A stretch of 31,774 nt of DNA, from IMG/VR virus record IMGVR_UViG_3300023196_000284, positions 1 to 31,774 of that record; one strand, 5' to 3'. Positions within the stretch are counted from its first letter, which is position 1. Each line of letters begins with the position of its first letter. Of the stretch, positions 56 through 31,774 are shown piece after piece. Under the pieces are notes generated by a model. It was given only the letters and a program-made list of their open reading frames with translations, made no database searches and was not told the DNA's origin. The DNA is from a virus. The position numbers were made by a program, and so were the translations under genes.

Positions 56-295
56 TGTAATGGCGTTATTAAAGGCATCCATCACACCTACGTCAATTGC
101 TGCCTCTCTTTGTGCGCCTATTTCTGCGAGTTTCTGTGCGCCTCTTTGAGCCTCTAAATCGCATTGGAACTTGAACATATTAAGTTCATGGGAACGCTCA
201 TTCTTTTTATCAAGCCACTTGAGGACTTCTGGGGCCATCCTAAAAATGCCACCAAAGATAGAGCCTAGTAAACCGCCAGAAAGAATATCAAGCAT
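1..295 (-). CDS. Holin-like membrane protein, 5' part. The ORF leaves the window at base 1 and resumes at 31719 once the 55-bp overlap is removed; the joined product is about 164 aa.
   Basis: ATG at 295 (ATGCTTGA overlaps the stop of ORF 288-530). My translation is MLDILSGGLLGSIFGGIFRMAPEVLKWLDKKNERSHELNMFKFQCDLEAQRGAQKLAEIGAQREAAIDVGVMDAFNNAITQQAE, followed by MVKAAGGW..., in frame with the track ORF 31520-31762. Confidence 0.75.
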   Translation of the reverse strand, partial: MLDILSGGLLGSIFGGIFRMAPEVLKWLDKKNERSHELNMFKFQCDLEAQRGAQKLAEIGAQREAAIDVGVMDAFNNAITQQAEMVKAAGGWVASLSA

Positions 296-17573: not shown

Positions 17574-19706
17574 TTAACCCCTAATCTCTACGTTAGATGT
17601 AATGCCAGCACCAATTTTCATTGCTTTCAATTGGGCTTCTGCTTCAAACTCTTGTTGCTTTAACGCAAAGTAAGCCTGTTGCTTTTCACGCTCTAATTGC
17701 AACTTAGCACCTTCCTTCTCACGCATCATCTGCATTTCAAGGTCAGCTTTCTGTTGTGCCATCTGCATATCAATTTGCTGCTTCTGTTGTTGCAGTTGCA
17801 TATCAGATTGTGCTTTAGCTTGGCTTGCTTGAATCTCTGCTTGTGTTCTAGCCATCAAAGCCTGTACTTCTGGGGGCATTTGTTGTTGCTGCGGAGGAGG
17901 ATTGCTTAACGCTTGGTCTTGCTCTGGCGTAATCGCTTTGTAGAACTCAGCAGAATCCTTAAATCCTGCAATTTCAACCATGCGTCCCAATGTGCCACGA
18001 TATTGGGCAGGTGAAACGTAAGGGTTAGCAGGGCCATACTGACCAATCAACTGCTCTTGTTTAGCAAGAACCATCGACAACATAGCCATCTGCTCTTGTC
18101 GGTTTCCAGCACCCAGACCAACATTGATAGAAACATCGTATTGGTTAGCCCATGTACGAGGGTCAAACTCTACGAATTCACCACGCATACGCACCAAACG
18201 AGGCTTGTCTTGGTACTTACAAAGCAAGTGAAGGATACCCTTGAACAAAGATTTAACACCTGTCTCAGCAAAGATTCGAGCCATTAACTCAATCTTACCT
18301 GCGCCAGCTTGTTGCATAGAGGCCACCGCAGCAGCAGTCACATTCTGCAAGATAGCAGGGTCTAATCCCTGTGAAGCATCAGATACGCCAGTACGCTTAG
18401 ACTGTACTGTATCTAAATACTGAAGCATTGGGAAAGCCTGAGATGCTACGTTCTGAACTACAAGTTGTTGAACAGCACCTTGGGACTTGGCACGAATAAC
18501 ACCACCAGCAGTAGATGTAAGCAAGTCGTCAAGGTTTACCTGCCCTTCGATAGCAACTACACGAGCATTGTTTGTCAGATATAAGTTATCTAACATTTGA
18601 CGAGTGATAGTGGTCTTAATCAGTTGTAAGTCTGTTGTCCTATCTGCCAACGAGTTACCAAAAAACTTGTGTGGGATAGGAATAGGACAGATTGAGTGGA
18701 AAGGAACATAGTCCACTTCCACAACCATTTCCTTACCCTTCTCGTCCTCAAGAATCTCATTAGAAGCGTAAAACACTTGAACCAATGAAGCAATGCCTTT
18801 GCCATCTATATCAGTTTTGACATAACATTCAAAGACCTCAATCTCTTGCATTGAAGGGTCATCAGTCTGAACTTGGTATGGTTGCTCACCTGCGGAATAA
18901 CGAGCCACTCGCTCTGGCGTATAAGCTAGAGCATCATCCATCTGCAAGCCTTCAATTTGCTTCTTGTTAAAACCCATAGCAACCAAGTCACTACGAGTCA
19001 ACATCTGCCTATGGGCTACAAATGGGCTATCAGCAATAGTTCTAGCTTTCTTGCTAATCAAGAACTCCTCTGGGGGAACATTCTCAATCGTGACTTTGCC
19101 TGATTTCTTTTTCTTTTGGGCTACGATATTGTGTGTCGCACCCATAACTGGCATACCCATAGGGTCAACAACTGGCTGTCCCATTGGGTCAAATATCGGA
19201 AATTCTGTCGTATCTTGCTCGACAATCTCCATAGTCTCATCACTCATCAGCATTGCCAACTCATCGTTAGACAAATCATAGTAACGCTCTTTGGTAATGT
19301 CTTCTTTATCTTCCCAATATGCTTTTAAGATGCCGTTCTTCTGCATCAAAGCGTCTTTAAACCAATCGTGAAGAATGGCTACGCCTTCGTTATCTCGTGA
19401 GAAAACCCAATTGCAGTAGTCTGTAGCTTGCTTGGCAGAGGCTTCATCTTGTGGGCCTTGTGGCTCAAAGACTACGATATTGTCTGAGCCTGTAAAGATA
19501 CGAACTAAGCTAGGCAGAGCACCATCAATTGCTTCTGCTACTTCGCCAGTAACGATTTGAGATTTACCCTCAACTTCATTACCATAGGGCTGTCGTAGAT
19601 AAGCCTCCAAAGCCTGTTTGCGCTGGTCAACAGTTTCTGTTTCAATGTAGCCAATTGCATCATCAATCTCCGCTTGAAGAATTGACTTCAGTTCGTTCTG
19701 TACCAT
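17574..19706 (-). CDS. Portal protein
   Basis: 710 aa, directly downstream of terL. The N-terminal pattern is RKQALEAYLRQPYGNEVEGKSQIVTGEVAEAIDGALPSLVRIF, typical of podovirus portals. The C-terminus is a Gln-rich coiled coil. Confidence 0.85.
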   Translation of the reverse strand: MVQNELKSILQAEIDDAIGYIETETVDQRKQALEAYLRQPYGNEVEGKSQIVTGEVAEAIDGALPSLVRIFTGSDNIVVFEPQGPQDEASAKQATDYCNWVFSRDNEGVAILHDWFKDALMQKNGILKAYWEDKEDITKERYYDLSNDELAMLMSDETMEIVEQDTTEFPIFDPMGQPVVDPMGMPVMGATHNIVAQKKKKSGKVTIENVPPEEFLISKKARTIADSPFVAHRQMLTRSDLVAMGFNKKQIEGLQMDDALAYTPERVARYSAGEQPYQVQTDDPSMQEIEVFECYVKTDIDGKGIASLVQVFYASNEILEDEKGKEMVVEVDYVPFHSICPIPIPHKFFGNSLADRTTDLQLIKTTITRQMLDNLYLTNNARVVAIEGQVNLDDLLTSTAGGVIRAKSQGAVQQLVVQNVASQAFPMLQYLDTVQSKRTGVSDASQGLDPAILQNVTAAAVASMQQAGAGKIELMARIFAETGVKSLFKGILHLLCKYQDKPRLVRMRGEFVEFDPRTWANQYDVSINVGLGAGNRQEQMAMLSMVLAKQEQLIGQYGPANPYVSPAQYRGTLGRMVEIAGFKDSAEFYKAITPEQDQALSNPPPQQQQMPPEVQALMARTQAEIQASQAKAQSDMQLQQQKQQIDMQMAQQKADLEMQMMREKEGAKLQLEREKQQAYFALKQQEFEAEAQLKAMKIGAGITSNVEIRG

Positions 19707-19854
19707 TTTTGTCCTTTGGAGGGCGACCCATTCGGGGTTTATCCAATTGTAATGCTTTTACCACATTTTCCAACATTTCGAGTCGCATTTCAAGTTCTTT
19801 TACCTTTGGGGCTAAATTTACCCCTTGACGCTCAATAAACATTACACAATCCAT
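19663..19854 (-). CDS. Small coiled-coil protein bridging terL and portal (59-63 aa)
   Basis: Track ORF. An alternative ATG at 19842 shares one base with the terL TAA. It has a heptad-like KVKELEMRLEMLENVVKALQL followed by RMGRPPKDK. Its 3' end overlaps the portal start by 44 nt. Confidence 0.45.
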   Translation of the reverse strand: MDCVMFIERQGVNLAPKVKELEMRLEMLENVVKALQLDKPRMGRPPKDKNGTERTEVNSSSGD

Positions 19855-21104
19855 TTCGGAGTTTGGTTAATCGGCTTATCCCACGTTGAATGTCCTTCAT
19901 CCAATCCAAGGGCTAAATAGCGAAAAGAATCAGAGCCATGACTTGACCAATCATGCAATGGTCTTTCAAAGAAAATCTTACGCTTCTCATCGTAGTCTCT
20001 GCGGTAGTTTCTTAGGCAGTTCAAGCCATTCTGTACCTGTGGGACATTAAACCAGCATCTTGGCAGCAACCTTCTTACCGCTTGGATGCCATCGTCTAGT
20101 CCCATTCTGGGTGCAATCTTGACCTGTAGTCCAGCTTCCTCAAGCATTTCTAGTCGGCTCTTACCTGTGCCTAACTCCCTAACCCTAACGTCATGTGGCA
20201 GAATATGCTCTGCTTTGAGATAGTCATTGTCCTTAATCCACTTAACGTAGTGGTCTAGTCCTACCCCATGATTCTCATAGTAGTCCAGTAATCTGACCTC
20301 AGAGCCTACCAGTTGAGCCACCCAGATAGACGTAGAGTCACCCATACCCAAGTCCCAAGCAGTAAAAGTTCTGCTGATTTCCTCTCTGGGAATCTCTTGC
20401 ATATGCTTTTTTTCTTCTAACTCGTTAAGCATTTGCCCATAGTAAGAACCCTCTACGGCAGCGTCAAAACTACACTCAAACTCTTGGCGGTACTTATCCT
20501 CGCCCATCTCATTCTTAGCAGCCTTCAGTTCTGTCTCATCTACTACCCCTGTCTCAGAGGCTTTGAACTCAAGCAGACCCCATCCTTCCTCTTTCTCTGC
20601 CCTATCTCGCAACTCTTTGAAGTGGTTGTGTCCTTTGGGTGTACCAATAAACAAACACCAGCCCTTTCTGTCTGTCAGAGCAGGTCTAACAATGTCTGTC
20701 CATATCTTAGGATTCTGGTCACCCACCTCATCAATGATTACCCCATCAAAAAATTGACCTCGGAGGGAATCAGGATTGTCTGAGCCATACAACTGGATTC
20801 GCCTACCCCAGAAGTCAACTCGTAACTCTGAGATGTTGTTAGTACCGCCTAGCGGAGTAGTGTATTTGACGAGGTAGTCCCAAGCTACCCTCTTAGCCTG
20901 TCCATAGGTAGGCGCAATGTAAGCGTATCTTGGTGTTTCTTTCTCGTTTAGCACCGCCTCACGGATTAAGTGGTTAAGTGCTGCAACAGTCTTACCAAAC
21001 CTTCGATGTGCCACTACAACAGCAAAGCGTTTGCCATCCAGTAACTCGTGAACCTTTAGTTGGTGTTCCCTTGGCTTATAGGGAATTTCTATTACTTCGC
21101 CCAT
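19842..21104 (-). CDS. terL: Terminase large subunit
   Basis: Walker A-like VVAHRRFGKT and Walker B-like GVIIDEVGD. The C-terminal nuclease-type motif is AWDLGMGDSTSIWV. 420 aa. It overlaps terS by 13 nt. Confidence 0.9.
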   Translation of the reverse strand: MGEVIEIPYKPREHQLKVHELLDGKRFAVVVAHRRFGKTVAALNHLIREAVLNEKETPRYAYIAPTYGQAKRVAWDYLVKYTTPLGGTNNISELRVDFWGRRIQLYGSDNPDSLRGQFFDGVIIDEVGDQNPKIWTDIVRPALTDRKGWCLFIGTPKGHNHFKELRDRAEKEEGWGLLEFKASETGVVDETELKAAKNEMGEDKYRQEFECSFDAAVEGSYYGQMLNELEEKKHMQEIPREEISRTFTAWDLGMGDSTSIWVAQLVGSEVRLLDYYENHGVGLDHYVKWIKDNDYLKAEHILPHDVRVRELGTGKSRLEMLEEAGLQVKIAPRMGLDDGIQAVRRLLPRCWFNVPQVQNGLNCLRNYRRDYDEKRKIFFERPLHDWSSHGSDSFRYLALGLDEGHSTWDKPINQTPKWIV

Positions 21105-25501: not shown

Positions 25502-25722
25502 GCTTGTCCCCTTGCTCGGATGGCGTTAGCCGCTTCACAAGCAAACTTGTGCCAATCGTACGAAGGGTTTGATTCAACAATCTTTGCACACGCCTCACGC
25601 TCATGCTGTGCTATTAGCTTGGCAAAAGCTATCAATTTTTCTCTGTTAGTTTTAATTTCGCTTATTGGTAAATAATTTAATTCAGCGCGTCTAGCCATTT
25701 CAATAATTTCATCTTGCGTCAT
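25498..25722 (-). CDS. Hypothetical 74-aa early protein
   Basis: ATGA overlaps on both sides. It ends in AIRARGQA, a C-terminus common in small proteobacterial phage proteins, as I recall. Confidence 0.65.
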   Translation of the reverse strand: MTQDEIIEMARRAELNYLPISEIKTNREKLIAFAKLIAQHEREACAKIVESNPSYDWHKFACEAANAIRARGQA

Positions 25723-26480
25723 TTTGCGTATTTCCCGTCAATGATTTTTGCAAAGTTGTTGGCGTTAATAATCCATTCAAGGTCAGGCTTCCATGTTCGC
25801 CCGTTGGTTTCAAAGCCGCTTGCTAGGGTTGTATCGTTGGCAATGTAACCAAAGAAAGCGTCCCACCATTTAAGCCCTTCACCGCCCGTTCTGTAGCCCT
25901 CAGGACTGTATGCGGATGGTCGCGCCGCTTGCTTCCATCGTTGCCGCATAAATGTCTGCCGGTTACCCTCCCATGAACGGGGCTGTGTCAAATGCGGTAA
26001 ATGTTTTTTCCAAAGGGCCAAAATTTCCTTATGCGGACAAGGTGGAAACCCTGTTTCACCGGAAGATGCGTCAGCATCTATAAATAATGGTTCTTGGTTA
26101 TTGGTTATTGGTTCTTGGTTAGGGTTATTTGTGGGTTGCGTTTGGGTTTCCAGTAGCTTTTTAGGTCTACCGCCCAACTTGCCAATTTCCCTGTTTCGTT
26201 CTGCTTTAGCTTGGTAAGCCGTGATGGTTGCATCACATCTGCTGTGCCGCCATGTCGCTGTAGGTTCGTCCCATGTAAAAAATTCCTGTAGTACAGCAAT
26301 CACACAATGTTCGTGCATTGGCATCCGGATTTTGCGGGATACGCTTTGCGTGTTCAAGGGAATAGCTTGCTCTGTCGTGTAGTACAAGTCTAAAAGCCGC
26401 CGGTAGGCTATGTCTTCTTCAATGGTTAGGTGTGCCGTGTCAGCAATGTAATCGCTAACATGGAATGGGTAGTGGTACAT
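25719..26480 (-). CDS. Replication protein, DUF1376 (YdaU-like) N-domain plus a phage replication-protein-type C-domain
   Basis: The N-terminus is YHYPFHVSDYIADTAHLTIEEDIAYRRLLDLYY. The C-terminus is CPHKEILALWKKHLPHL...WWDAFFGYI...DLEWIINANNFAKIIDGKY. The linker is repetitive. Confidence 0.7.
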   Translation of the reverse strand: MYHYPFHVSDYIADTAHLTIEEDIAYRRLLDLYYTTEQAIPLNTQSVSRKIRMPMHEHCVIAVLQEFFTWDEPTATWRHSRCDATITAYQAKAERNREIGKLGGRPKKLLETQTQPTNNPNQEPITNNQEPLFIDADASSGETGFPPCPHKEILALWKKHLPHLTQPRSWEGNRQTFMRQRWKQAARPSAYSPEGYRTGGEGLKWWDAFFGYIANDTTLASGFETNGRTWKPDLEWIINANNFAKIIDGKYAK

Positions 26481-28877: not shown

Positions 28878-29258
28878 ATGAGTACCCTCACCACTATGAG
28901 AAATCAGTATGCAACTCATACTGACTTCCGTGATTTCCAAGGTTTGATTCCCGAAAATACGCATTTTTTGCCTAGTAACATAGACATGATTTGCGAAAGA
29001 AGGGGACACTTCCTAATCGGAGAGTGGAAAAAACCTAATGAAAATATGGCTACTGGTCAGCAATTGCTACTCAAGGCTTTTGCTCAAGTTCCTAAATTTA
29101 CTGTGTTAGTCATTATTGGTAACACAGACAACAAACAAACTGAAGTTGGAGATGTGTTCCAAGTTGTTCTAGGTAAGTGCGTCAAGATAGGAGAAGGTCT
29201 TGATTACCTAAAAGACTTCTACGTTATGTGGTACGAATTTGCAAACTCGAAAGGATAG
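28878..29258 (+). CDS. PD-(D/E)xK-like protein (VRR-NUC-like motif)
   Basis: NIDMICERRGHFLIGEWKK...TGQQLLLKAF gives a D...ExK...Q pattern. 126 aa. Confidence 0.45.
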   Translation: MSTLTTMRNQYATHTDFRDFQGLIPENTHFLPSNIDMICERRGHFLIGEWKKPNENMATGQQLLLKAFAQVPKFTVLVIIGNTDNKQTEVGDVFQVVLGKCVKIGEGLDYLKDFYVMWYEFANSKG

Positions 29259-29260
29259 AA

Positions 29261-29569
29261 ATGTCATACGCAAATATAGAGATGAAGATAATCCAATGGG
29301 CAGAGGCCAGAAAGATTATTCCTAACAGTAACCCAGAGTCTCAGCTACTCAAAGCAGTCTCGGAGATGGGCGAACTAGCTGATGCAACCATCAAGCACGA
29401 TAAGGAAGCAGTCATAGATGCAGTAGGGGATGTTATGGTCTGTCTTATAAATTATTGTGTGCTGCAAGACATAAACCTAGTAAACTGCATGGAAGTTGCG
29501 TATGACCAGATTAAGAATCGCAAGGGCATACTATTGCCTAACGGAGTCTTCCAACGAGATTCTACTTAG
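29261..29569 (+). CDS. mazG: MazG-like nucleotide pyrophosphohydrolase
   Basis: LLKAVSEMGELADATIKHDKEAVIDAVGDVMVCLINYCVLQDINLVNCMEVAYDQIKNRKG matches the all-alpha NTP-PPase pattern. I prefer the ATG at 29261 over the track start at 29228. Confidence 0.75.
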   Translation: MSYANIEMKIIQWAEARKIIPNSNPESQLLKAVSEMGELADATIKHDKEAVIDAVGDVMVCLINYCVLQDINLVNCMEVAYDQIKNRKGILLPNGVFQRDST

Positions 29570-29705
29570 CCAACAGGTAAAGACCAACATTTGAAAAAGC
29601 ATAACCTGCATACACAATCGCCATTTGTGGGTTATCTTTCCATAGCTGCTCACCAGCTATATAAGCGTAGATAGCACCAGTAACAATGATGAGCCATGCA
29701 CTCAA
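29562..29705 (-). CDS. Possible 47-aa two-helix membrane peptide (TTG start), not in the ORF track
   Basis: My translation is (M)SAWLIIVTGAIYAYIAGEQLWKDNPQMAIVYAGYAFSNVGLYLLAK. The TTG at 29705 overlaps the phosphoesterase TGA. It fills the convergent gap and competes with a hairpin at 29601-29635. Confidence 0.35.
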   Translation of the reverse strand: MSAWLIIVTGAIYAYIAGEQLWKDNPQMAIVYAGYAFSNVGLYLLAK

Positions 29706-30688
29706 AATGCACCTACATCAATCACTTCTCCACGGAATTGAATCTGGTCTTCATCAAACTTATGGACTAACTCAGGCCACAACAACTGACCATTAAAGAA
29801 GTTCAGTACCGCAAAACCAGACCTGTGATTGCTAGGATTTATCTCAGCATATGTAAACTGAGGCCCATCAGTCTCAGCCAGAGTCCCTGTATCCACTCCG
29901 TATCTAACCCCGTTATAGTCGCTAAAAGGGGTCACTTTTAGGCTATGTAAGTGTCCAGTAACTACTGACACACCAGCATTTACAGTATTGTTGTGAGTTG
30001 CATGGATACCACCTTTATATCGGTGCTTGATAATGACGTTATCTGTAGGCCAAACTGCCCAACAAAAGTCCCAATCTGGGATATGGTCTGTTAGCTTGAA
30101 ACCCTGTACCTCTTTAAATTGTGGTGCTTGCTGCGCTAAACGATTACCGAATCTAATATCATGATTTCCCCATGTAAACAGTAGCTTTACATTGTGCCTT
30201 GATGCTTTAGCGGCTTCCTCAATTTCACTCAACGCACCTTGACAAGCCTTTAGTTCTTGGATAACAGAAGTCTGTGGTTGGTCAGTTACATCATGTCTGG
30301 ATATAGACGCACCATCGAAAGCATCACCATTGCATATGATGGCTTTGGGTTTAAGCGTTTCTATCATGTATAGAAGCCCTTTAAACGCTGTTGTACGCTG
30401 TGCAGGGATAAAGTGTGCATCTGAGAACACAATAACTGTTCCGTCCAGTATGCCAAGTTCTACCTGTTTTAGCGGAGAAAAGGATTTAGGCTTGTTTTTA
30501 TCGTATTTAACACCACGATGGTCACTTGCATAAAGTGCCATGTTGTATTCTTTTTCAATCCACCTTCTGCGTAAATGAACTGCCCTGTTTGCAATGCCAA
30601 GATGGTCAGCTACTTTTTGAGCAGATTGAAGTTGCCCCCACAGTTGGATGAACTCGGTATCGGTACACGTTTCGTTAGCACTTCCCAT
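29702..30688 (-). CDS. Calcineurin-type metallophosphoesterase with an N-terminal HTH
   Basis: The motifs are FSDAHF, NGDAFDG, WGNHD and TGHLH. The N-terminal HTH is SAQKVADHLGIANRAVHLRRRWIE. 328 aa. Confidence 0.75.
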   Translation of the reverse strand: MGSANETCTDTEFIQLWGQLQSAQKVADHLGIANRAVHLRRRWIEKEYNMALYASDHRGVKYDKNKPKSFSPLKQVELGILDGTVIVFSDAHFIPAQRTTAFKGLLYMIETLKPKAIICNGDAFDGASISRHDVTDQPQTSVIQELKACQGALSEIEEAAKASRHNVKLLFTWGNHDIRFGNRLAQQAPQFKEVQGFKLTDHIPDWDFCWAVWPTDNVIIKHRYKGGIHATHNNTVNAGVSVVTGHLHSLKVTPFSDYNGVRYGVDTGTLAETDGPQFTYAEINPSNHRSGFAVLNFFNGQLLWPELVHKFDEDQIQFRGEVIDVGAF

Positions 30689-31049
30689 TGGAATCCTTAG
30701 AGAGTAAGTTTTCTAGCAAGTTAATAACTCTATGCTCTTGCATCTCTATTTCCTCATCAGAAGATTTAGGGTCTGTAGCTACACACATCAAGTCATACAA
30801 AAAGATATGAAGTAACTCGTGTAGCGCAGTCTTATCTAGCGAGTCTGGTGTAATCTTTTCAGCACCAAAGTCCCCAAGTCGATATGTAGCCAATCTAGCA
30901 GTCTGGTTAAACTCCACAGAGGCCATTGCTTCTTTAGCTGGTTTACTACCCTTCTCAATTCGCCAATCACCCAAACTCAGAACTTGTTGCCACTTTCTGA
31001 CACTTTGTGCAAAGAGTTGTGCGTCTTCTGGTGTAGGTATATTAGACAT
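30675..31049 (-). CDS. Small HExxH-motif protein (SprT/WLM-like zinc metallopeptidase candidate)
   Basis: ALHELLHIF with a downstream EMQEHRV. 124 aa. It overlaps the phosphoesterase gene by 14 nt. Confidence 0.5.
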   Translation of the reverse strand: MSNIPTPEDAQLFAQSVRKWQQVLSLGDWRIEKGSKPAKEAMASVEFNQTARLATYRLGDFGAEKITPDSLDKTALHELLHIFLYDLMCVATDPKSSDEEIEMQEHRVINLLENLLSKDSNGKC

Positions 31050-31079
31050 ATCAACACCTTATATGGATATTATGACATT

Positions 31080-31523
31080 TTAATTTAACAATGCACACTC
31101 AGCAACTCTGCGCTTGGTCAAGCCAGCTAGAACCTTACCACCGCCTTTGTTCCAAAGCATCAATTGTTCTTTAGCACCTTCCCAATCTTGGGCATTTATT
31201 TTTCGCTTTAGAGTAGAAGTCTGGAGTCTGCCAGTACCTAAGTTATAGCAAAAGTCCACAATAGCATTGCACTTGCGTTCATCCGTCATAAGTATGGGGC
31301 AATTCCTTAAAACACCCTGTAGGTAGGTATGCTCTAGTTCGTGCATTAGTAAGGCACTAGCAGTAGGCTCATCAATAGGGCTATCTTGAAGCGTTACCTT
31401 ACGCCCATCAGCATAATAGGTAGAGCCGTAACCAATCGTAGCTACGTTAGCAGGGCAAAGGTAGGGTTTACTTCTAAACCCCTCAAACTGCTTACATAAA
31501 GATGCAGCCAGTTCTAAGTTCAT
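31080..31523 (-). CDS. Endolysin, GH24 phage lysozyme
   Basis: FEGFRSKPYLCPANVATIGYGST is the catalytic Glu context. NAIVDFCYNLGTG and VLAGLTKRR are also present. ATGA overlap with the holin-like gene. Confidence 0.85.
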   Translation of the reverse strand: MNLELAASLCKQFEGFRSKPYLCPANVATIGYGSTYYADGRKVTLQDSPIDEPTASALLMHELEHTYLQGVLRNCPILMTDERKCNAIVDFCYNLGTGRLQTSTLKRKINAQDWEGAKEQLMLWNKGGGKVLAGLTKRRVAECALLN

Positions 31524-31774
31524 AAGCCACGCTTAGACAAAGTTCTATCAAGAAACCAGTAGTTAATAGTTCCTGAGAGCAAAGCAGAAAAGTCTGGAGT
31601 CATCATTGTTTTGAAGACTTCAGTAGCTGGCGCACCTGCTAACCATGCGTTCCATGCAAACCAGACATGGATAAATGACCATACGAATAGTACCCAATAT
31701 GTTACTACTGGACGTACAGAAGCAGAAAGACTAGCTACCCATCCACCTGCGGCTTTAACCATCTCTGCTTGCTG
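31520..31774 (-). CDS. Holin-like membrane protein, 3' part (continues from 1-295 across the circular junction); resembles GTA-type 3-TM holins
   Basis: The frame stays open to the window end. SASVRPVVTYWVLFVWSFIHVWFAWNAWLAG plus a further hydrophobic segment. It sits directly upstream of the lysozyme. Confidence 0.7.
   Translation of the reverse strand, partial: QQAEMVKAAGGWVASLSASVRPVVTYWVLFVWSFIHVWFAWNAWLAGAPATEVFKTMMTPDFSALLSGTINYWFLDRTLSKRGL
31720..31774. repeat. Terminal direct repeat, right copy
   Basis: Identical to 1-55. Confidence 0.95.

Follow-up and report, generated by a model that had tools for sequence, protein, structure and literature searches.

A cassette behind the lysis genes of a P22-like podovirus pairs a predicted small zincin with a helix-turn-helix metallophosphoesterase

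We describe here a three-gene cassette carried by a 31,774-nucleotide stretch of viral DNA, positions 1 to 31,774 of the IMG/VR virus record IMGVR_UViG_3300023196_000284, which is referred to below as the window. The cassette lies directly downstream of a phage lysozyme gene and encodes a putative small zincin (ORF1), a metallophosphoesterase (MPE) fused to an N-terminal helix-turn-helix (HTH) domain (ORF2), and a short peptide with two transmembrane segments (ORF3). Its features, with the gene coordinates taken from the open reading frame (ORF) list, are as follows.

31080..31523, minus strand: GH24 phage lysozyme, directly upstream of the cassette (PF00959, E 1.9e-34; phrog_7 endolysin)
31069..31077, minus strand: extended -10-like box TGTCATAAT in the gap between lysozyme and ORF1; promoter function not supported
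30675..31049, minus strand: ORF1, 124 amino acids (aa), putative small zincin
29702..30688, minus strand: ORF2, 328 aa, HTH plus MPE
30545..30661, minus strand: HTH domain of ORF2, aa 10-48, three helices (10-20, 23-30 and 34-48 in the AlphaFold2 model), recognition helix NRAVHLRRRWIEKEY
29705..30442, minus strand: MPE domain of ORF2, aa 83-328, motifs SDAH, GDAFDG, GNHD, KHR/H229 and GHLH
29562..29705, minus strand: ORF3, 47 aa, TTG start, hairpin peptide with two transmembrane segments

The genes are tightly packed, and the three of the cassette are translationally coupled. A gap of 30 nucleotides (nt) separates the lysozyme stop (31080) from the ORF1 ATG (31049), ORF1 and ORF2 overlap by 14 nt (30675-30688), and the tetranucleotide TTGA at 29702-29705 holds the ORF2 stop (TGA) and the ORF3 start (TTG) together. 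An initial annotation of the window had described three minus-strand ORFs with overlapping junctions behind the lysozyme; all of its coordinates and both overlaps were confirmed, and the strings that it quoted (ALHELLHIF, a later EH pair at E105-H106, SAQKVADHLGIANRAVHLRRRWIE, FSDAHF, NGDAFDG, WGNHD and TGHLH) were each found in the translations. All three cassette genes are under strong purifying selection, with ratios of nonsynonymous to synonymous substitution (dN/dS) of 0.085 for ORF1, 0.078 for ORF2 and 0.067 for ORF3, measured against close relatives at a dS of about 1.

The ORF1-family zincin is almost always found directly upstream of an MPE, and this holds across three MPE architectures. 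This linkage is the principal finding; the initial annotation mentions neither it nor the repeated siting of the module beside lysis genes. Among close relatives retrieved with ORF1 as the seed, an MPE was directly downstream in 80 of 80 loci. In a first distant set of 65 ORF1-family loci, with about 40-50% identity to the seed and room on both sides, an ORF2-type MPE overlapped or abutted the zincin in 60, and the five strong exceptions all held another MPE in the same slot, giving about 65/65 overall. Four of these exceptions (L168, L212, L213 and L248) carry an HTH-fused protein with the MPE motifs TDSH, GDF, GNHD and GHRHH, as judged by eye; three of the four proteins (L213, L168 and L248) were scanned and matched phrog_704, 'DNA repair exonuclease', over their full length with E-values down to 3e-124, and L212 carries the same ORF as L213. 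The fifth, L176, has an HTH and a different phrog_221 domain (E 7.5e-53). The identities of the phrog_704-type proteins and of L176 rest on PHROG scans. A sixth locus with ORF1 and no ORF2-type gene, L249, has a weak ORF1 match only and lies beside a portal gene. A second distant set contained an MPE in 71 of 71 loci, 65 of them ORF2-type, five phrog_704-type and one an MPE lacking the HTH.

The co-occurrence of the HExxH protein and the MPE across phages proved to be near-obligate in one direction, from zincin to MPE. When the search was reversed, an ORF1-family gene was present in just 5-6 of 80 diverse loci seeded with the MPE. Another eight MPE-seeded loci have a different small SprT-like zincin next to the MPE (PF10263, 29.5 bits), which abuts it directly in the seven loci within the neighbour cluster. 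When the ORF1 family was compared with these PF10263 neighbours using hhalign, the HExxH helix alone aligned (probability 14%), and homology between the two was not shown. The slot thus keeps a pairing of a small zincin with an MPE annotated as an exonuclease while the sequences themselves change. The MPE is accordingly the core of the module and the zincin a dedicated add-on, recruited at least twice.

Two other small families were seen directly upstream of MPEs that have no zincin, in many cases overlapping them. One, of 88 aa, is present at 10 loci (L125, L130, L131, L134 and L144-L149 among them) and has a weak match to phrog_25889. The other, a Cys-rich family of 65 aa counted at 8 loci, has a weak HiPIP-like match; its loci are noted as L118, L119, L126-L129, L132, L139 and L141. 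Either could be an alternative partner of the MPE.

ORF1 contains the active-site motif HExxH at H77-H81 and a further E105-H106 pair on its C-terminal helix. No variation was seen at H77, E78 or H106 among 90 homologues reaching down to 29% identity, and conservation is at least 90% at H81, E105, W20 and W29. An exhaustive HMMER search placed the family at 644 clusters at 50% identity, made up of stand-alone proteins of about 120 aa. The AlphaFold2 model of ORF1 is of high confidence (predicted local distance difference test, pLDDT, 96) and has the topology H-EEE-H-H, in which a helix and a three-stranded sheet are followed by the HExxH helix and the C-terminal helix bearing the EH pair. The top match in a Foldseek search against the PDB was the SprT domain of SPRTN (6mdx; probability 0.99, E 4e-3, TM-score 0.40, root-mean-square deviation 7 A), and selecase (4qhi) was as close to the model as SPRTN, with probabilities of 0.98-0.99 for 6mdx/6mdw and 4qhi. 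IrrE/PprI and CapP were among the weaker PDB matches, and in the viral fold library BFVD phage SprT-like proteins came out on top (E 1.6e-4). These models and matches bear out the earlier description of an HExxH protein with a SprT-like layout. By sequence, ORF1 had no match in Pfam, PHROG, NCBIfam or PADLOC, and nothing meaningful was retrieved with it, singly or as a profile, from all PDB chains; weak PF10263 matches were seen in 11 of 90 family members (best E 0.0028). ORF1 is thus predicted to be a minimal zincin with a SprT/selecase-like fold, and not a demonstrable member of PF10263.

Long multi-stretch 'matches' of P0377 and P0387 to ORF1 were rejected as repeat artefacts, and viral scans with the distant family seeds P0348 and P0334 found no loci. 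The contigs retrieved for the most distant relatives are about 1 kb long, and the most distant family member with a readable downstream neighbour is in L085 (115-974), at 29% identity to ORF1. Its next gene is a 170-aa ORF that by eye is HNH endonuclease-like and not an MPE. The zincin-MPE linkage may fail at the far edge of the ORF1 family, or a homing endonuclease may have inserted at L085.

The MPE domain of ORF2 was recognised by Pfam (PF00149, Metallophos; 28.7 bits against a cut-off of 21.5, E 2.2e-6) and by phrog_221, 'metallo-phosphoesterase' (E 1.2e-26, aa 63-308), with a weak additional match to phrog_7339, 'DNA repair exonuclease' (E 1e-3). NCBIfam returned no LpxH match and only a sub-threshold PdeM fragment. 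The conservation of the metal ligands was checked across 61 homologues, down to 35% identity, and all motifs were invariant (D90/H92, D122/D125, N175/H176, H222/H229 and H246/H248). In the N-terminal part, F13, W17, G31, R40 and R41 are at least 90% conserved among the 61 homologues. The window's own ORF2 sequence falls below the Pfam HTH thresholds; members of its family match HTH_23 (best E 6e-6), HTH_8, HTH_29, HTH_24 and others. In the AlphaFold2 model (pLDDT 85), three helices at the N-terminus are joined to an MPE sandwich by a linker of low confidence at aa 50-75 or so (pLDDT 52-61 for residues 51-70). In two large searches the HTH plus MPE arrangement, at about 320-340 aa, was found throughout the family, and since all members cover ORF2 end to end, the fusion is the family architecture. 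The model, the family HTH matches and the invariant motifs together bear out the earlier proposal of an N-terminal HTH fused to a complete MPE, and no characterised fusion of this kind turned up in our literature searches, in keeping with the same annotation.

Foldseek returned 104 PDB matches for ORF2 at E<=1e-3, and the top 50 listed are all of the MPE fold at probability 1.0. The best E-values were those of Mre11/SbcD (3av0, 4.9e-7; also 4tug and 4lty), with TM-scores of 0.3-0.5, and LpxH (E 1.4e-6, TM-score to target about 0.5) and Rv0805 (E 3e-6) scored alike. ORF2 had been described as closest to SbcD/Mre11 or CpdA: Mre11 and SbcD are indeed among its fold matches, but by sequence the closest annotated relatives are the MPEs of cluster A mycobacteriophages (phrog_221). 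BLASTP aligned ORF2 aa 85-325 with aa 5-256 of EagleEye gp58 (27% identity, E 5e-12), and this alignment takes in the C-terminal beta region. A longer variant of the gene was seen in L173 (6341-8278), where the ORF matching the MPE profile is 646 aa, about twice the normal length, and the related gene of L175 is 327 aa; this may be a gene fusion or an assembly frameshift.

One member of the cluster A group has been characterised in some depth. Gp48 of phage A10ZJ24 is a phosphodiesterase that degrades linear, plasmid and genomic DNA, host DNA included, and also cuts phage DNA substrates in vitro; it is toxic, expressed early, and needed to overcome M. tuberculosis defences, and a counter-defence role has been assigned to it (PMC12287305). 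Gp48 is described as highly similar to other cluster A MPEs (PMC12287305), and it is from this statement that EagleEye gp58 is taken to be a Gp48 orthologue. Gp66 of phage D29, of the same MPE family, has been reported as a 2',3'-cyclic nucleotide monophosphate (cNMP) phosphodiesterase (Dutta 2014, as cited in PMC10580990).

ORF3 has two hydrophobic transmembrane segments with EQLWKDNPQ between them, a conserved GYAFxNxGLY motif, no lipobox and no periplasmic domain. It was predicted from the outset to be a hydrophobic hairpin, and a conserved hairpin of two transmembrane segments is what was found. No family match was obtained for it in Pfam, PHROG, NCBIfam or PADLOC, holin and spanin families included; the PADLOC defence models likewise matched none of the three cassette proteins. 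A homologue of ORF3 directly follows the MPE in 70 of 70 close loci, in 43 of 69 distant ORF1-seeded loci and in 5 of 77 diverse MPE-seeded loci, and its start codon in relatives is TTG in 69 and ATG in 6.

The extended -10-like box noted in the gap between lysozyme and ORF1 is present, but the suggestion that it gives the cassette its own promoter, and with it moron status, did not survive. A two-hexamer promoter scan reported nothing in the 30-nt gap, promoter-like sites in the region number 6 against 5.7 expected from shuffling, and the exact box TGTCATAAT is kept in just 16 of 81 relatives, the consensus over the relatives being TGTAATAAT; we therefore rejected the idea as unsupported. Conservation in the gap is highest at the Shine-Dalgarno stretch TATAAGGTGTTGA-ATG. 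Good Shine-Dalgarno sequences precede all three genes (AAGGTG for ORF1, AAGGA 5 nt upstream of the ATG for ORF2 and AGGTG for ORF3) and, with the overlapping junctions, fit expression of ORF1-3 from the upstream late transcript. The overlapping start and stop codons and the conserved position argue for co-transcription with the lysis genes.

The wider genome is consistent with such an arrangement. The ends of the window are identical, with an exact 55-bp direct repeat at 1-55 and 31720-31774, and the window is therefore a complete genome of 31,719 bp, assembled as a circle, in which genes may cross the window ends. Its GC content is 42.6%, and its source is a circular 31.7-kb P22-like podovirus. 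The main features recognised outside the cassette in PHROG scans are these.

25719-26480, minus strand: O-like replication initiator
19842-21104, minus strand: large terminase
17574-19706, minus strand: P22-type portal, 710 aa
13687-14637, minus strand: major head protein
Minus strand: scaffold, virion proteins and tail fibres
31520..31774 joined to 56..295, minus strand: holin, 164 aa (phrog_6637), reconstructed across the window junction

The largest ORFs of the window are the portal (710 aa), a 668-aa ORF with an unknown-function PHROG match only, a 576-aa ORF with no PHROG match, and a tail fibre. The linear ORF list holds just the 80-aa 3' part of the holin, as the full gene wraps around the window ends; an intact 164-aa homologue was found in L087, and the N-terminus of the holin, GGxxGxxFRxAPEVLKWxDKKNE, resembles the GTA_holin_3TM type. 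Three further small minus-strand genes, at 288-530, 539-772 and 1145-1372, encode membrane or coiled-coil proteins of 80 aa (with two transmembrane segments), 77 aa and 75 aa (with one such segment at the C-terminus). On the minus strand the order is tail genes, holin, lysozyme, ORF1, ORF2 and ORF3, so that on a circular genome ORF1-3 form the end of one long minus-strand unit, and the cassette does lie, as first proposed, at the distal end of the late operon. A plus-strand operon (Erf, an SSB-like gene, a gene of unknown function and MazG) converges head-on with this unit. The 3' ends of ORF3 and of the MazG-like gene (plus strand, 29228-29569) overlap by 8 nt at 29562-29569, and no intrinsic terminator was predicted on either strand at this convergence. 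Between the SSB-like gene and MazG lies a 126-aa ORF (28878-29258, plus strand) with no match in Pfam, PHROGs or PADLOC. No integrase was seen among the window ORFs that were scanned, the small ORFs having been covered in part.

The lineage of the module is very abundant in the environment, with thousands of near-identical database entries. A scan of a genome collection gave a single match, L087 (RFQL01000170.1), a 2.7-kb contig in a Burkholderiaceae metagenome-assembled genome that carries holin, lysozyme, ORF1 and ORF2 at about 95% identity. This contig is a phage fragment, and its binning gives a weak hint of a betaproteobacterial host.

Neighbouring genes were surveyed within 2.5 kb on the same strand at 85 loci, comprising 80 MPE-seeded loci, the window and L001-L004. 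Lysis genes are the commonest neighbours of the MPE: GTA_holin_3TM at 19 loci, GH108 endolysin at 14, GH24 lysozyme at 12, T7-type holin at 11 and GH19 endolysin at 9. Where 2 kb was available on both sides, the MPE had an endolysin homologue nearby in 37/37 of the close loci, 34/48 of the diverse loci and 34/46 of the distant ones, the endolysin type varying between GH24, GH19, GH108 and M15. Of the close relatives L005-L084, 37 have enough flank, and these carry a GH24 lysozyme in 19 cases and a GH19 enzyme in 18; the lysis enzyme was swapped while an almost identical ORF1-ORF2-ORF3 module stayed in place. No i-/o-spanin pair or u-spanin is recognisable near the window's holin and lysozyme. 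Elsewhere the module is found, whole or in part, at different genomic positions. In L212 and L213 a holin, a lysozyme and an embedded i/o-spanin pair come first, followed by ORF1, MPE and ORF3; Microcystis phage Mvi-Yong1342-1 has the MPE inside a cassette with a signal-arrest-release (SAR)-type lysin and spanins; in MW202674 the MPE and a SprT-like gene lie beside rusA, in an early, nin-like region and on the opposite strand; and in mycobacteriophages the MPE is located in the replication module, with EagleEye gp58 among primase and ribonucleotide reductase genes. These varied positions bear out the earlier view that the cassette stands outside virion assembly. In our reading, the adjacency to lysis genes reflects a common late timing and a site that tolerates insertion, and not a function in lysis, although a late, lysis-linked role of the module is conceivable.

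The explanation that we favour, tentatively and at somewhat less than an even chance, is that the three genes form a conserved accessory module, made late, in which an HTH-tethered, DNA-directed phosphodiesterase or nuclease works with a protease dedicated to it and with a membrane peptide. By analogy with its HTH-less mycobacteriophage relatives, ORF2 would most likely bind DNA through the N-terminal HTH and cleave phosphodiester bonds. Three things point to DNA as the substrate: the HTH itself, the DNase activity of the nearest characterised relative, and the MPEs of 'DNA repair exonuclease' type that follow the same zincin. The published DNase and phosphodiesterase activity of the phrog_221 family is thus a precedent for a nuclease and makes a signal nucleotide a less favoured substrate. 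ORF1 would be a minimal, SprT-like metalloprotease that depends on zinc and is dedicated to the MPE as its partner; it may process or regulate the ORF2 enzyme, or it may strip proteins off the same DNA substrate, the two sharing out the work as SPRTN and MRE11 do when DNA-protein adducts are removed. The ORF3 hairpin probably places or restrains the ORF1/ORF2 pair at the inner membrane. The likely purpose would be an attack, late in infection and to the advantage of the phage, on non-packaged DNA or DNA-protein complexes, such as the host chromosome or competitor DNA. The gene structure, the domain identities, the conservation of catalytic residues, the purifying selection, the linkage of zincin and MPE and the place in the genome are established by the present analysis; the DNA substrate, the protease activity, the membrane role of ORF3, the timing and the purpose are inferences, as is any role against host defence or superinfecting DNA. 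In a more specific form of the proposal, which we regard as a long shot, the module would be the phage counterpart of the eukaryotic pair SPRTN-MRE11: at the inner membrane the hairpin would anchor both a mini-protease that depends on DNA and an Mre11-like nuclease guided by its HTH, and these would strip and cut DNA that is capped or bound by protein. Its targets might then be the genome ends of superinfecting phages, where pilot or terminal proteins protect them, or, at lysis, nucleoid-bound host DNA.

Several observations weigh against the favoured explanation. ORF1 itself gave no match to the Pfam SprT-like family (PF10263) at E<=0.1 and is below its gathering threshold, and the TM-scores of its PDB fold matches are low, at about 0.4. 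For ORF2, neither the single sequence nor the profile found a sequence-level match among all PDB chains, and the fold search picks out no MPE subfamily, returning Mre11, SbcD, LpxH and the class III cNMP phosphodiesterase Rv0805 alike. The reported activity of D29 Gp66, as cited, means that the ORF2 substrate could be a nucleotide. The cluster A MPEs lack the HTH and are early proteins encoded in the replication module, where neither a zincin nor a membrane peptide accompanies them, and the last place in a late operon is an odd time to destroy host DNA. Finally, most MPEs of the family have neither a zincin nor an ORF3 (present in 5-6 and 5 of about 80 loci, respectively), which implies that these partners are dispensable for basic MPE activity.

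The alternative that lies nearest to the favoured explanation makes ORF2 an indiscriminate nuclease that endangers the phage itself and has ORF1 do no more than activate it, for example by cutting the disordered aa 49-75 linker, or destroy it, with ORF3 sequestering the enzyme at the membrane until lysis. Such a toxin-control pair would suit the one-way linkage, in which the zincin always comes with an MPE and the MPE is usually without a zincin, as well as the translationally coupled expression, the low-confidence linker between HTH and MPE, and the toxicity of Gp48 and its cutting of phage DNA substrates. Nothing directly contradicts this arrangement, which overlaps with the favoured explanation and departs from it just in the target of ORF1. 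Proteases of the SprT family typically depend on DNA and attack proteins bound to it, a habit that suits an ORF1 working alongside ORF2 equally well, and we consider the toxin-control pair unlikely, if by no means far-fetched. A different possibility is that ORF2 erases immune signals by degrading the messengers of CBASS, Pycsar, Thoeris or type III CRISPR systems, or 2',3'-cyclic nucleotides, while ORF1 cleaves a defence effector. The Rv0805 match and the activity reported for D29 Gp66 are what one would expect of such an enzyme, as are the CapP-like and IrrE-like proteases among the weaker ORF1 fold matches. A conserved N-terminal HTH, however, has no obvious use in a small-molecule hydrolase, the phrog_704 'DNA repair exonuclease' fills the same slot behind ORF1-like zincins elsewhere, and Gp48, the relative that is better characterised, is a DNase. 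A gene at the end of the late operon also comes late for erasing signals, and neither PADLOC nor any other family links the proteins to known anti-signalling enzymes. We judge signal erasure to be quite improbable.

A contribution to lysis deserves separate consideration, given the proximity of lysis genes on the same strand at most of the loci surveyed despite the changing type of endolysin. Here ORF3 would be a holin, an antiholin or some other membrane-disrupting peptide, ORF2 an LpxH-like envelope phosphoesterase and ORF1 a protease of envelope proteins, with the module perhaps standing in for spanins. LpxH is a strong fold match of ORF2, and JGI names two of its homologues LpxH; ORF3 is a peptide of two transmembrane segments; and the window shows no spanin pair near its lysis genes. 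But the module coexists with complete holin, endolysin and i/o-spanin sets in L212/L213 and in Microcystis phage Mvi-Yong1342-1, and for this reason the idea of a spanin substitute was rejected. The MPE and SprT-like gene of MW202674, in the early region on the opposite strand, and the homologues in Mycobacterium and Gordonia phages, whose hosts have no lipid A, also speak against an envelope function, as do the HTH and the lack of an NCBIfam LpxH match. A lysis accessory seems to us a most unlikely account of the module.

The MPE family is already known, and one branch of it is characterised. Phage MPEs are widespread, and only recently was one shown to be a host-DNA-degrading counter-defence enzyme. 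At the present locus the MPE carries an additional DNA-binding head and is accompanied by a SprT-like protease as its dedicated partner and by a membrane peptide; in the literature, we found no account of such an HTH fusion, of a near-obligate partner of SprT-like type, of the hairpin or of the late, lysis-adjacent placement, and no paper that connects phage MPEs to SprT or to lysis cassettes. An ordinary reading of the module as a phage nuclease is plausible. The pairing of zincin and MPE across three architectures, with a second SprT-like family in the same slot, clearly predicts, in a way that can be tested, that the two proteins are physical or functional partners. If they do act on protein-bound DNA, this would be the first case in a bacterial virus in which proteolysis and nucleolysis are coupled to remove DNA-protein complexes; if they do not, the locus would still be a regulated nuclease module, and a large, unannotated family of small zincins would gain a context. 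Should the module prove to be a counterpart of SPRTN-MRE11, it would amount to a late-acting exclusion or DNA-clearing system of a new kind, common in very abundant freshwater phages.

Among the known systems closest to the module is the family of A10ZJ24 Gp48, D29 Gp66 and EagleEye gp58, whose members are, like ORF2, phage-encoded, non-structural proteins with the five MPE motifs. The cluster A proteins begin at motif I (D10) and lack an HTH, whereas ORF2 adds about 80 N-terminal residues that make up the HTH and linker. Unlike them, ORF2 is encoded by the second-to-last gene of a late operon, flanked by ORF1 and ORF3. With SPRTN/Wss1, selecase and the minigluzincins, ORF1 has in common an HExxH helix placed after a three-stranded sheet and a further His/Glu ligand on the next helix. 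At 124 aa, and below the PF10263 threshold, it differs from SprT-like/Spartan proteins in having no Zn-ribbon and no DNA-binding tail.

Mre11/SbcD and ORF2 have in common the MPE fold and the SDxH, GDxFD, GNHD and GHxH flavours of its motifs; a sequence-level match between them was not found, and ORF2 has no evident capping domain. No Rad50/SbcC-like partner was seen among the window ORFs of at least 80 aa. ORF2 would presumably engage DNA through its N-terminal HTH instead. A further comparison can be made with phage lambda, in which NinH, a small Fis-like HTH protein, is encoded beside NinI, the lambda Ser/Thr phosphatase, itself an MPE. The two lambda proteins are separate and of delayed-early expression, unlike ORF2, and the motifs of the lambda phosphatase are of the PPP type (GDxHG, GDxVDRG and GNHE), against SDAH, GDAFDG and GNHD in ORF2. 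In both cases, however, an HTH and an MPE occur together in an accessory region near lysis genes, and some relatives of ORF2 match the Fis-type HTH_8, recalling NinH.

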